5,386 nt of DNA, from UHGV virus genome UHGV-0786930; one strand, given 5' to 3'. The stretch comes from a virus. The translations under genes and the position numbers were made by a program. This document shows, in pieces, positions 1,551 through 4,815 of this stretch. The notes under the pieces were generated by a model that was not told the origin of the DNA, did no database searches, and was given only the letters and a program-made list of their open reading frames with translations. The stretch's first letter is position 1, and each line of letters opens with the position of its first letter.

Positions 1551-3356
1551 ATGAAACTTAGTAAATTTAACTTGTCGCATAGGCACCATACTACTATGGA
1601 GATGGGTAAATTGGTGCCTTTCTATGTTCAGGATTGTTTGCCTGGTGATATATTTCGTATTTCTAATCAGGCTATTTTTCGCGCCCAGCCTATGGTTGCG
1701 CCTGTTATTTCCCAGATAAACTGGGTTACGCAGTATTATTTTGTGCCCTACCGAATACTTTGGGATAACTGGACTGAATTTATTACCGGTGGTGATGACG
1801 GTCTCTCAAATCCTGCTTACCCTACGGTTACCGCACCAGAAGGAGGATGGCAAGCTAACTCGCTTGCTGACTATTTTGGTTTTCCTATAAAGCAAGCTGG
1901 CATTGAAGTATCAGCACTTCCATTCCGTGCTATGGCTAAAATTTGGAATGACCATTATAAAATTGATGATATTGAGGTTGATGTTGAATTCTCTACCACT
2001 GACGGCCCTGATTCTTCTACGCCGACCGAACTTATGCCTGTTCACTGGAAGCGTGATTACTTCACAAAGGCTAAACCATTTACTCAGCGTGGTGCACAAA
2101 TCAGCGTCCCTGTCATCCCTGCCGTTAAAGTAGGTTCAGCATACCCTGTCTATTCGCCTTTGGTCGTTAAGGATGGTGATATTACCCAAACAGAACCCAC
2201 AGGCTCTCAGCTTGTAGGCACTGCTACTTGTGATTATCAAGGTAAATTAACCTCATTCGTCATTGACCCTGCTGTTAAGCCTACTTTGAGCAGTGGCTAT
2301 ATAAAATTTGTTTTCAATATGACCTCTGCTGGCATTGATAGTTCTGCTGCTGGTTATTCTGTTTGTCCTAACAATCAAACTGTCAATACTATTTTTTATG
2401 TCCCTGTTAAGATAATTTGGGGTAACCCAAATTCTTATAGTGACTCTCCTGTATTTCAAGGCAGCTGCACAACAACTGTTAAAACTGCTAAATGTTTTGC
2501 GCCTGTTTCTGGCGCTAGGAAACCTAGTTTTTATTATGTTGCAGAATTTACTGATGTTGTATTTGCTTTTACACAAGTATCAGCAAATGAAAAAGTCGAT
2601 TTGGGTTCATCAGGTGCTATTAATATGCGCGATTTGCGTGTTGCGAGTGCTTATCAACGCTTTAATGAGAGGAGTTTAAAATATGGAGCAGAATATGAGG
2701 ATTATTGTCGTATGGAATTCGGCGTGCGTCCGCGTGATAGCCGACTCAACAAAAGTGAGTATCTCGGCGGTAATAAAGCGCCACTTCAAATTAGCGAAGT
2801 CATACAAACAGCTCCTGGCGCACAAGGACAAACCCCACTTGGAAATATGGCTGGTATGGGAATTGGACAAGCCAGACAGCGTCGTATTAAGTATTTCTGC
2901 CCTGAACACGGTATTATTATTGGTTTCGCGTCTATTCGACCAGAAACTATCTATACGCAAGGCATCGATAGAGCGTGGCTTAAACGAAATAGATTTGACT
3001 ATTTTACTTACGAGTTTGCTAACATCGGCGCACAGGAGATTATGCAGCAGGAGCTTTATGCCACCAAAGACAATAAAAATTCTGTATTTGGATATGCTCT
3101 TAATGGCAATTACAACGAGTATCGACATCAAGAGAGCCGATTATCAGGAAATTTTAGAACCGATTTGTCGTTCTGGCACTTGGGACGTCAATTTGCTGAG
3201 GCGCCTGTCCTCAATCAGTCATTTATGAAAATGAATCCGCGCAAGGATATCTTTGCTATTACCGACGATAGCTTGCCTGCTTTCTTGGTTATGCTGCAAA
3301 ACAATATCATTGCTTATCGCCCTATTCCTAAGCGGGCTAAAAACATTTTAAAGTAA
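1551..3356 (+). CDS. VP1: Major capsid protein (Microviridae VP1/F-like, gokushovirus-sized), 601 aa.
   Basis: N-terminus 'FNLSHRHHTTMEMGKLVPFYVQDCLPGDIF' matches the conserved start of Microviridae major capsid proteins (…H..T…G.L.P……PGD…). 601 aa is in the gokushovirus VP1 size range. Strong SD and its own promoter. Largest ORF, with antisense ORFs only as shadows. Confidence 0.92.
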   Translation: MKLSKFNLSHRHHTTMEMGKLVPFYVQDCLPGDIFRISNQAIFRAQPMVAPVISQINWVTQYYFVPYRILWDNWTEFITGGDDGLSNPAYPTVTAPEGGWQANSLADYFGFPIKQAGIEVSALPFRAMAKIWNDHYKIDDIEVDVEFSTTDGPDSSTPTELMPVHWKRDYFTKAKPFTQRGAQISVPVIPAVKVGSAYPVYSPLVVKDGDITQTEPTGSQLVGTATCDYQGKLTSFVIDPAVKPTLSSGYIKFVFNMTSAGIDSSAAGYSVCPNNQTVNTIFYVPVKIIWGNPNSYSDSPVFQGSCTTTVKTAKCFAPVSGARKPSFYYVAEFTDVVFAFTQVSANEKVDLGSSGAINMRDLRVASAYQRFNERSLKYGAEYEDYCRMEFGVRPRDSRLNKSEYLGGNKAPLQISEVIQTAPGAQGQTPLGNMAGMGIGQARQRRIKYFCPEHGIIIGFASIRPETIYTQGIDRAWLKRNRFDYFTYEFANIGAQEIMQQELYATKDNKNSVFGYALNGNYNEYRHQESRLSGNFRTDLSFWHLGRQFAEAPVLNQSFMKMNPRKDIFAITDDSLPAFLVMLQNNIIAYRPIPKRAKNILK

Positions 3357-3921: not shown

Positions 3922-4008
3922 ATGAATAAAGAGAGAATTGGTTTGTGGATTGCAGCACTTACTGGCGCTATAAATGCTATTTGGGAACTTGTTAAAGGTC
4001 TTATATGA
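3922..4008 (+). CDS. 28-aa hydrophobic/amphipathic membrane peptide MNKERIGLWIAALTGAINAIWELVKGLI. Candidate lysis peptide or type-I-toxin-like peptide.
   Basis: Very strong SD AAGGAGGTGA (3906-3915) a few nt before ATG 3922. Charged N-terminus 'MNKER' followed by a ~23-residue hydrophobic helix. Small residues spaced i, i+4 (G7-A11-G15-A19, glycine-zipper-like) and two flanking Trp. An intrinsic terminator follows immediately. Confidence 0.5.
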   Translation: MNKERIGLWIAALTGAINAIWELVKGLI

Positions 4009-4039
4009 GCGCGCGGCTTTTTGCTTAAAAAAACGCTAG

Positions 4040-4067
4040 CCCGTCCAGCAATGGACGGGTTTTTTTT
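4040..4067 (+). terminator. Rho-independent terminator: 8-bp GC-rich stem CCCGTCCA/TGGACGGG, GCAA tetraloop, T8 tract.
   Basis: cccgtcca-gcaa-tggacggg-tttttttt, perfectly paired stem followed directly by eight T. 32 nt downstream of the peptide stop. Confidence 0.8.
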
Positions 4068-4123
4068 GCCCAAAAATTGCCCGAAGGGCGCGGCTTTCAT
4101 TTATGAAAACACTCTACCGATTG

Positions 4124-4161
4124 CGAAAAAAAGTCGCGGGGGCGCACCGTTAAGCCCCCGC
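4124..4161 (-). terminator. Possible minus-strand intrinsic terminator: hairpin A followed on the - strand by GAC + T7-8.
   Basis: The + strand reads 'gcgaaaaaaagtc-GCGGGGGC…GCCCCCGC', so the - strand has the stem-loop followed by gacTTTTTTT. The 3-nt gap between stem and U-tract weakens it. Confidence 0.25.
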
Positions 4162-4240
4162 ACCTACGCGCTCACCATGCGCGAAGCACGCTGTGGTGTG
4201 AGCGCGCATGGGGGTTATAAGGGGGCTTGCCCCCTTATAT
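4124..4240. other. GC-rich non-coding cluster of three consecutive stem-loops. Hairpin A 4136-4161: 8 bp GCGGGGGC/GCCCCCGC, 10-nt loop. Hairpin B 4167-4211: two alternative 9-bp pairings around a 19-22-nt loop containing CTG. Hairpin C 4216-4239: 10-bp stem, CTTG tetraloop.
   Basis: Inverted repeats read directly. Composition (G5/C5 runs, GCGCGC) contrasts sharply with the AT-rich remainder. Located between a + terminator and a + promoter. No SD-led ORF. Confidence 0.55.
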
Positions 4241-4241
4241 A

Positions 4242-4270
4242 TTGACAAATTACCGAAAAAATTGTAAAAT
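4242..4270 (+). promoter_or_regulatory. Strong sigma70 promoter: TTGACA(4242-4247) - 17 nt - TAAAAT(4265-4270), TG immediately upstream of the -10.
   Basis: Consensus -35, optimal 17-bp spacer and a 5/6 -10, in an AT-rich block immediately after GC-rich hairpin C. Predicted TSS ~4277-4278. Confidence 0.7.
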
Positions 4271-4277
4271 TTTTTCG

Positions 4278-4324
4278 GCACAGACTACAGACTTGATGAC
4301 TCTGTGCTAGATGACACCATCTAG
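4278..4324 (+). promoter_or_regulatory. Structured 5' leader / operator: hairpin 1 (GCACAGA 4278-4284 / TCTGTGC 4301-4307, 16-nt loop) abutting a perfect 18-bp palindrome CTAGATG-ACAC-CATCTAG (4307-4324) whose 3' arm overlaps the SD AGGAG (4323-4327).
   Basis: Inverted repeats read directly. GATGAC direct repeat at 4295-4300 and 4310-4315. The palindrome lies between the predicted TSS and the RBS of the basic-protein gene. Confidence 0.5.
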
Positions 4325-4332
4325 GAGAAATA

Positions 4333-4815
4333 ATGGTTTGGAAATTTTTAACTCGTTCAAAAAGGCGAAATAAGGGCCGTAGGCGTGCCTTAAAGCCACA
4401 AAGTCGCCAAAATATCGTTTCAAAAACGATTACAGATGTAAGGAAAATATCAAAGCCGCAGACGCTTTTATTGCCTGGTCTTATAAAACATAAATATAAC
4501 CAAATTACTGGGTTGCACCCCAAAAAGCGATTAGCTTTTGAAATCGCAAAGCGTAGAAATAGGCGTTTGAACTCGATTAGAGATAATTTGAAGAATTCTT
4601 TGCACTCATTAACCAAAAATATGTTACAATCTCGTTTAACGGATGAGCAGAGGCGTGAGCGTTATGCGCAGAGGATTTGCGTTGAAAGAAGGTTACGTCG
4701 TGATGAGATTATGCGGAAAACGCATGGAAAAGGTCTTAAAATTAAAAATGCCATCTGGACGCCTGAGTCTAGGCTTGTCCGTTGTGAAAAAGATAAGGTT
4801 AAGAGGAGAAGGTAA
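4333..4815 (+). CDS. Highly basic 160-aa hypothetical protein (Arg/Lys-rich, no hydrophobic core). Probable nucleic-acid-binding / internal virion protein with no recognisable family.
   Basis: SD AGGAG 5 nt before ATG 4333. Its own strong promoter. The stop overlaps the VP2 start (TAATG at 4813-4817). Composition 'RSKRRNKGRRR…RRERYAQRICVERRLRRDE…KDKVKRRR'. Confidence 0.75.
   Translation: MVWKFLTRSKRRNKGRRRALKPQSRQNIVSKTITDVRKISKPQTLLLPGLIKHKYNQITGLHPKKRLAFEIAKRRNRRLNSIRDNLKNSLHSLTKNMLQSRLTDEQRRERYAQRICVERRLRRDEIMRKTHGKGLKIKNAIWTPESRLVRCEKDKVKRRR

Follow-up and report, generated by a model that had tools for sequence, protein, structure and literature searches.

To our knowledge, the start of complementary-strand synthesis has not been mapped in microviruses beyond the Escherichia coli phages phiX174, G4 and their kin. 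This start decides whether an injected genome establishes itself in a given host. In the filamentous (Ff) phages, the minus-strand signal of the intergenic region lies directly upstream of the plus-strand nick site, and a packaging hairpin lies beside the origins. DNA mini-hairpins of the GCGAAGC or CCGAAGG type occur at the priming sites of G4, St-1, alpha3 and RSF1010 ssiA (PMC13037366). In rolling-circle replicating (RCR) plasmids, the single-strand origin (sso) is separate from the double-strand origin (PMC5703833, PMC5714925). Its position relative to rep is flexible, and ssoA, U, T, W and L are unrelated cassettes that are interchangeable among related replicons and limit host range (PMC5703833). 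Here we describe a GC-rich cluster of three hairpins (A, B and C) at positions 4124–4240 of the virus genome UHGV-0786930, a stretch of 5,386 nt that was analysed at its full length and is referred to as the window. The reading that we favour, plausible though tentative, is that this cluster is the complementary-strand (minus-strand) initiation signal of the phage. The reading rests on conservation, strand, position and analogy, and a use for priming is suggested by analogy.

Conserved intergenic hairpins with compensatory substitutions were proposed as negative-strand initiation sites in the roodoodoo- and reekeekeeviruses, with their function not certified (PMC9865509). A preliminary description of the window had stated that no complementary-strand origin was defined for gokushovirus-like phages. 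That statement needs qualification, as equivalent predictions were already published for other microvirus clades (PMC9865509). The kind of element that the cluster represents was therefore already known, and what we report is expected biology in a new phage lineage. Those phages belong to other clades with other sequences. They have one hairpin or two, not three in a GC-rich cluster beside a phiX174-like nick hairpin, and exchange of modules was not described for them (PMC9865509), unlike here. Of the new details, this exchange and the nick hairpin next to the cluster are the most useful.

The window is a complete circular microvirus genome, because the open reading frame (ORF) leaving its 3' end (from 4815) resumed in frame in 1–331, and because a 93%-identical contig aligned over the end-to-start junction. 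Every gene was on the + strand. Since the packaged strand of the Microviridae is the gene-sense (+) strand, the + strand of the window was taken to be the packaged one.

The GC-rich island in an otherwise AT-rich genome, as first described, was borne out by sliding-window analysis. The 117-nt segment starting at 4124 was 62.4% GC and the one starting at 4117, the GC maximum of the genome, 65%, against a genome mean of 40.8% (z = 4.0); the runner-up region reached 53%. The + strand of 4120–4245, folded as single-stranded DNA (ssDNA), gave −35.5 kcal/mol (z −3.7), and none of 200 dinucleotide shuffles was as stable. The − strand gave −36.8 kcal/mol (z −5.1, dinucleotide shuffles), and the same region folded as RNA gave −64.3 kcal/mol (z −4.3). 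The interval of the cluster was the most stable 120-nt ssDNA fold in the genome (genome mean −10.7, standard deviation 4.6 kcal/mol), in agreement with the stable fold that had been proposed.

The cluster had also been described as non-coding and as lying between a terminator (4039–4067) and a promoter (4242–4270). Both points stood, and both flanks were conserved. The interval 4067–4241 was the only terminator-to-promoter gap of the genome. Between these two signals no promoter was predicted on either strand, no tRNA was found in the region by ARAGORN, and no Rfam covariance model matched inside 4124–4240 even at E = 10. A TTG-start ORF at 4021–4245 (74 aa) was unconserved; insertions and deletions broke its frame even in a relative with 93% genome identity. 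No conserved coding ORF spanned the cluster.

All three hairpins were read on the + strand. Hairpin A (4136–4161) pairs 4136–4143 with 4154–4161 in 8 bp (GCGGGGGC with GCCCCCGC) and has a 10-nt loop. It is followed by a single-stranded spacer, ACCTA (4162–4166), where CCTAC was invariant in 10 relatives. Hairpin B (4167–4206) adopts a fold of 16 pairs common to the family, made up of 8 bp, a 2-nt bulge, 5 bp, a 1-nt bulge and 3 bp. Its apex holds GCGAAGC (4181–4187), with a CTG at 4191–4193. An alternative, hairpin B' (4175–4211), is a perfect 9-bp stem of CCATGCGCG (4175–4183) with CGCGCATGG (4203–4211). An unpaired G5 tract (4210–4214), kept in all relatives, lies upstream of hairpin C (4216–4239), which pairs 4216–4225 with 4230–4239 in 10 bp under a CTTG loop and ends 2 nt before the −35 hexamer of the promoter.

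Relatives were found via capsid homologues, the contigs of these homologues, and a scan for DNA patterns. Nine further genomes carried the same intergenic element, designated type I, with capsid identities to the window of 69–94%. Three more genomes (L004, L009 and L012) had the same gene order and a different intergenic sequence. Covariation was counted in a 10-sequence alignment, A3, of the window and the nine relatives; further type I contigs (encoding P0125–P0142) exist outside this alignment.

The intergenic region (4009–4332) was a chain of ten hairpins, in the order H0, terminator, H1, H2, A, B, C, D, E and F. In this ten-helix structure, 96.7% of the alignment cells were paired, and 12 pairs changed on both sides, a count reached in none of 500 shuffles. 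When the 3' partners were slid by 1–3 columns as a control, pairing fell to 35–59%. The hairpins were conserved among the relatives, with compensatory changes in hairpin A.

In hairpin A, six of the eight pairs changed on both sides. Five different stems were present, all of which fold (variants among the relatives: GCGGTGGC, GTGGGGTTGCC, GTGAGGTTGCC and GCGGAACCGCC), and the loop TTCATT was kept on different stems in L005 and L006. The sequence identity of hairpin A was 37–50%, near the level of silent capsid sites. Hairpins B and C, on the other hand, were 88–94% identical, versus 46–57% for the same pairs of genomes at the four-fold degenerate sites of the capsid gene. In hairpin B (91–93% identity), 15 of the 16 pairs were invariant, and the remaining one showed a C-to-T change giving T·G. 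The stem of hairpin C was invariant save for one G·T (L006) and one T·G (L008), and its loop-closing C..G became T..A in L215 and L149. As the identity of hairpins B and C exceeded the silent-site level, their sequence, and not just their structure, must be under selection. Hairpin A is constrained in structure only, and hairpins B and C in sequence too.

All one-sided stem changes produced G·T on the + strand, and never A·C. They comprised T4178 of the window, a single change in the L005 version of hairpin A and, in hairpin C, one each for L006 and L008; two further G·T pairs were invariant. On the aligned sequences, this pattern favours the + strand as the functional strand.

The preliminary description had drawn hairpin B as a 9-bp stem with a CTG exposed in its loop. 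Hairpins A (8 bp) and C (10 bp, CTTG loop) were as claimed, whereas the 9-bp B was the alternative B', specific to the window. In the window B' and B were isoenergetic (−15.0 versus −14.7). In the relatives B' was 4–6 kcal/mol worse than hairpin B and was broken in 8–9 of 10 by the loss of two pairs, and the family fold of hairpin B was the minimum-energy fold in all of them. B' arose by window-specific changes at 4178 and 4208–4209, as judged against the 93%-identical L319. The CTG itself was present and invariant. In the family fold its C and G were paired and its T was bulged, and only in B' was it partly exposed. Because the CTG is unexposed in the conserved hairpin B, the argument from an exposed CTG lost its basis; the invariance of the triplet is shared by nearly all of B. 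The lineage-specific substitutions (4178, 4197 and 4208–4209, versus the 93%-identical relative) make hairpin B bistable.

G4 and phiX174 were run through the same scripts as the window. The F-G intergenic region of G4 was 58% GC versus 46% for the genome, contained three hairpins and was the most stable fold of G4. The double signature of the cluster, a GC maximum together with a fold-energy minimum, was shared with this proven origin region in its own genome, which argues for an initiation signal. The cluster also resembles G4 oric in being non-coding and intergenic, in lying on the packaged strand, and in consisting of three adjacent GC-rich hairpins at a GC peak and at the most stable fold of the genome. 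Both have an apical GNA-type DNA mini-hairpin (GCGAAAGC in G4; GCGAAGC here, in six of the ten sequences) and CCTAC-like bases 3' of a hairpin (the CCTAC spacer here, CCCTAC before the G4 primer start), the latter a match of only 4–5 nt.

In G4, hairpin I carries the mini-hairpin GCGAAAGC, and the annotated primer start is a CTG 4 nt beyond its 3' side, where the spacer is single-stranded. In the window, the A–B spacer reads CCTACG and the only invariant CTG is inside hairpin B. The primase of this phage's host may prefer another trinucleotide. The two loci differ further in their location relative to the genes.

The likeness to the F-G minus origin of phiX174 was that of a hairpin region in a terminator-bearing intergenic gap, with GCGAAGC at 2358–2364 of phiX174. 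As there, a host enzyme would recognise a structure and not a long consensus; we know of no sequence consensus for the PriA primosome assembly site. The phiX174 region differs in that it is not GC-rich (43% versus 45% for the genome) and has a less extreme fold energy.

Mini-hairpin sequences recurred in the intergenic region. The CCGAAGG of the small hairpin H1 (4081–4087) is the mini-hairpin heptamer of RSF1010 ssiA (PMC13037366). CGAAG was found twice in the intergenic region of the window, where 0.26 copies were expected. All relatives examined likewise had two copies, except L009 with one, the expected number for them being at most about 1.0. Extra-stable DNA mini-hairpins such as these would suit a role while the DNA is single-stranded.

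Downstream of hairpin C by about 40 nt is hairpin E (4278–4307, + strand), with a covarying 7-bp stem and the loop ACTTGATG at 4291–4298. The loop motif was kept in all three types of intergenic module described below. Its ACTTGAT is the phiX174 sequence at the annotated plus-strand origin, position 4306, and in phiX174 the plus strand is nicked between G4305 and A4306 (10.64898/2026.07.25.740675). Comparable hairpins were present in the distant microviruses L301 (gcacctataGACTTGATGAtataggtgc), L294, L298 and L317. From the phiX174-like nick motif, the covarying stem and the similar hairpins in distant microviruses, we interpreted hairpin E as probably the plus-strand origin. By analogy, the nick was predicted to fall between G4295 and A4296. 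Hairpin E lies outside the Rep gene, unlike the phiX174 plus-strand origin.

With hairpin E placed in this way, the order of terminator, hairpin cluster, plus-origin nick hairpin and next gene is like that of Ff. The cluster also resembles the Ff signal and the plasmid single-strand origins in being about 120–160 nt of folded DNA, in the one-strand-specific function proposed here, and in belonging to a set of interchangeable unrelated cassettes. Those origins differ in being primed by RNA polymerase, via promoter-like hairpins or RSB and CS-6 motifs. No − strand (leftward) promoter-like site was found in 4000–4330, and no CS-6-type TAGCGW on the + strand of the intergenic region (CS-6 consensus TAGCGT).

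The exchange of cassettes was seen among the relatives. L004 and L009 share a hairpin cluster, type II, that is unrelated to type I; L012 has a type III cluster, and L338 and L339 have still other clusters. Similarity among types I, II and III was not above that of shuffled controls. A 'shared GAACGCT core' among the module types was dropped as unsupported. The module type contradicted the capsid tree: L004 was nearest to L002 (84%) and L009 to L011 (85%), while L002 and L011 both carry type I. This position and this exchange of cassettes parallel the interchangeable sso cassettes of plasmids. The preliminary description had considered that the element might be horizontally acquired. Its presence throughout the clade shows that it did not recently enter this genome as foreign DNA; what held of that idea is that the whole intergenic module was exchanged between lineages.

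Rep did not track the module type. The cluster is therefore unlikely to be the binding site of Rep, and its reader would be something other than Rep. On the other hand, the clades of p160, the basic, predicted all-helical 160-aa protein encoded at 4333–4815 (+ strand), followed the module type, with identities of 69–99% among type I genomes, 70% for the type II pair and 47–57% across types. As the module and the p160 gene are about 100 nt apart, one recombination could move both, and the link may reflect adjacency alone, though it leaves room for a phage protein that acts at the cluster. No relative of p160 was found in Pfam, PHROG, NCBIfam or the PDB, and a search of 5.8 billion sequences gave only 19 homologues. 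Its AlphaFold model was weak (pLDDT 64), too weak for a fold search.

The element was also looked for outside the clade. Only relatives of this phage gave extended similarity to it. Across collections of viruses, metagenomes and genomes, the 19-mer of hairpin B matched mostly by chance, in GC-rich bacteria and without extension, and it was not kept as a marker; the true relatives that it retrieved were only L149, L199 (the L011 contig), L211 and L215. The 14-mer GGGGGCTTGCCCCC was likewise rejected as a marker in viral contigs, being unspecific and present in many unrelated phages. A capsid pattern search in IMG/VR gave no match with a single sequence, and with an alignment gave only relatives of at most 45% identity, whose intergenic regions were unalignable.

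Similar 30-mers to the G5 tract with hairpin C were noted in a non-coding region of Dipodfec virus OQ686866 (L001, 3501–3531) and of two small Gallibacterium anatis plasmids (L321, 2500–2535), at E values of 0.1–0.3. A scan with the extended motif of the G5 tract and hairpin C gave 15 viral matches, none of them in microviruses. Since the motif is not specific to microviruses, the Dipodfec and Gallibacterium matches are probably due to chance.

If the cluster is an initiation signal, this signal would work on the single strand and consist of hairpins A, B and C, to which the smaller hairpins at 4079–4108 would probably be added. The packaged + strand would enter the cell and be coated by the single-strand-binding protein (SSB) of the host. 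The extra-stable hairpins would resist melting and stay as a landmark. A host priming enzyme would then recognise the landmark and lay the first RNA primer, after which DNA polymerase III would turn the circle into the double-stranded replicative form. The enzyme could be DnaG acting directly (the case of G4), a PriA primosome (phiX174) or RNA polymerase (Ff and ssoA).

The minus-strand priming site had already been proposed in the preliminary description. The part of the proposal that stood comprised real, conserved and non-coding hairpins, the bias to the + strand, the position and the G4-like signature, while the exposed CTG and a sequence similarity to G4 or phiX174 did not stand. Several results weigh against an initiation signal. 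The local alignment score with the G4 origin (the one compared among G4, St-1 and alpha3) was 19, against a null of 16.1 ± 2.3 (p = 0.12), and similarity to the phiX174 origin region was not significant (p = 0.40). Nor was there significant similarity to plasmids or known phages, or an sso-like homologue in the plasmid search. None of the single-stranded spacers contained a conserved CTG. Under the G4-type mini-hairpin definition (GCGNNAGC or GCGNAGC), hairpin B had GCGAAGC in six of the ten sequences and GCGAAGA in the other four. The fold energy gave the + strand no advantage (−35.5 versus −36.8 kcal/mol). The wobble test does not separate DNA from RNA function, because the + strand is also the mRNA sense, and the ten aligned sequences represent few independent events. 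Type II modules have no canonical terminator, so that their cluster is probably transcribed. Hairpins C and D are perfect palindromes that flank or overlap the promoter and could be protein operators in the duplex. Finally, the module type co-segregated with the phage's own p160, which a purely host-read signal would not need.

The last point bears on an alternative that we consider unlikely, in which the cluster acts in cis for a phage protein and not for host priming enzymes: a nucleation site for packaging or DNA condensation or a replication-switch site, bound by p160, or an accessory to Rep at the plus-strand origin. The match of p160 clades with module type, which capsid and Rep do not show, is in its favour, as are the sequence constraint on hairpins B and C and the example of the Ff packaging hairpin beside the origins. 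The first of these is weakened by the short distance between module and p160 gene, which one recombination could move together, and the Rep version by the lack of covariation of Rep with module type. In addition, p160 matches no family and has a low-confidence model, and we know of no packaging signal apart from the origin in the Microviridae. A bolder form joins the two ideas. The cluster and p160 would be an exchangeable two-part module, of which close relatives carry at least three unrelated types, and p160, possibly virion-borne, would read its cognate cluster and direct complementary-strand initiation or packaging, or set host range. We hold this to be decidedly unlikely; if true, the phage itself would encode, in p160, the specificity factor of a step that in the Microviridae is regarded as driven by the host alone.

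Another explanation of comparably low likelihood places the function in transcription, with the cluster as a backup terminator or insulator against read-through from the terminator at 4039–4067, as a 3'-end stabiliser of read-through mRNA, or, through C and D in duplex form, as operators of the promoter at 4242–4270. The RNA fold was indeed stable (−64.3 kcal/mol, z −4.3), hairpin C is 2 nt from the −35 hexamer, hairpin D overlaps the −10 element, and a dimeric DNA-binding protein would likewise lead one to expect the symmetric changes seen in C and D. There is, however, no T-run after hairpin A, B or C, and only 4038–4067 qualified as a terminator in the region. Few transcripts should pass that strong canonical terminator and extend into the cluster. 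The stem of hairpin A was fully replaced with its loop kept (TTCATT in L005 and L006), the opposite of an operator pattern, and hairpin B is an interrupted, bulged stem and no palindrome. In phiX174 the terminator T_F overlaps the minus-strand origin (10.64898/2026.07.25.740675), so that terminator and minus-origin roles can coexist. The alternative named in the preliminary description, horizontal acquisition of a structured element or a gene for a small non-coding RNA, would account for the anomalous composition and for the exchange of the intergenic module between lineages. It is extremely unlikely in view of the absence of a predicted promoter on either strand inside 4067–4241 and of an Rfam match at E = 10 inside 4124–4240. 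The restriction of extended similarity to the relatives, with 19-mer matches in GC-rich bacteria that do not extend, and the E values of 0.1–0.3 of the Dipodfec and Gallibacterium 30-mers, whose motif is not microvirus-specific, point the same way. That the cluster has no specific function at all we judge to be very unlikely.

An initiation signal in this clade would be tractable, as a sharply bounded candidate of about 120 nt with a likely plus-strand origin adjoining. Natural controls exist: hairpin A has swapped stems, B and C do not vary, and three unrelated modules take the place of the cluster in otherwise similar genomes. If confirmed, the signal would give a sequence-level handle for origin annotation in thousands of uncultivated microvirus genomes. 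It would also allow one to test whether host range depends on the origin cassette, as it does on the single-strand origin in rolling-circle plasmids.

The remaining members of the hairpin chain are all on the + strand. Hairpin H0 (4013–4036) has GCG/CGC and TTTTT/AAAAA pairs, with the stem kept and the loop variable in 10 relatives. The intrinsic terminator (4039–4067) consists of the stem GCCCGTCC with GGACGGG(T) (stem 4039–4060) followed by T8. It was the best terminator-like site in the scan, and its stem was invariant and its loop variable among the relatives. The mini-hairpin H1 (4079–4089) reads GCCCGAAGGGC, and one of its pairs covaried from C-G to A-T (GCACGAAGTGC) in seven of the ten sequences. 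Hairpin H2 (4095–4108) is TTTCAT-TT-ATGAAA, with the stem variants TTTCCT/AGGAAA and TTTCCA/TGGAAA among the relatives.

The hexamer GCGGCT opens H0 (4013–4018) and recurs before H2 (4090–4095). Exactly two + strand intergenic copies were present in every relative of all three module types, spaced 62–78 nt apart; elsewhere there were only 0–2 per 5-kb genome. Each copy in the window opens a repeat unit of about 30 nt (GCGCGGCTTT, a small hairpin and AAAC). GCGGCT may be a protein-binding repeat.

The sigma-70-type promoter (4242–4270, + strand) is TTGACA-17-TAAAAT, with 11 of 12 matches. It was the best of the genome and was conserved among type I and II relatives. Hairpin D (4253–4278), with 11 AT-rich bp and a GTAA loop, overlaps the promoter spacer and the −10 element. 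One of its pairs covaried from A-T to C-G in four of the ten sequences, and L012 has a different 12-bp AT-rich hairpin at this position. The promoter would be sequestered or reshaped by hairpin D whenever the strand is single. Hairpin F (4308–4323) is TAGATG-ACAC-CATCTA and abuts and partly includes (4308–4327) the Shine-Dalgarno AGGAG of the p160 gene. One pair covaried from G-C to A-T, and the L012 version is CAAGTG/CACTTG. Hairpin F could serve as a translational or mRNA-stability element.

The phage had been called gokushovirus-like, an assignment that was not established. Rep (510–1526, + strand) matched PF23343 and the major capsid protein (1551–3356, + strand) matched Phage_F, and the nearest named capsid, that of Chicken microvirus mg8_102, was only 44% identical. 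Among 50,697 records of deposited phages, no relative was found by whole-genome near-identity or by a distant search with the intergenic region. On its sequence, the phage is an unclassified microvirus and not demonstrably a gokushovirus. A XerCD/dif-type integration site, as in temperate microviruses, was rejected: the best dif-like matches to the 28-bp motif had 10–12 mismatches, no better than in shuffled sequence, and lay outside the intergenic region.

A database contig with an identical capsid was 5831 nt long, presumably through terminal redundancy from the assembly of a circular genome. The window, at 5386 nt, has the genome length of phiX174; the sequences are unrelated and the equality is a coincidence. 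Two overlapping small ORFs (353–457 and 334–513) lie upstream of Rep. A predicted 34-aa product from there is extremely basic, with RRLRRRRRR at its C-terminus, and resembles the DNA-condensing J-type proteins of other microviruses.

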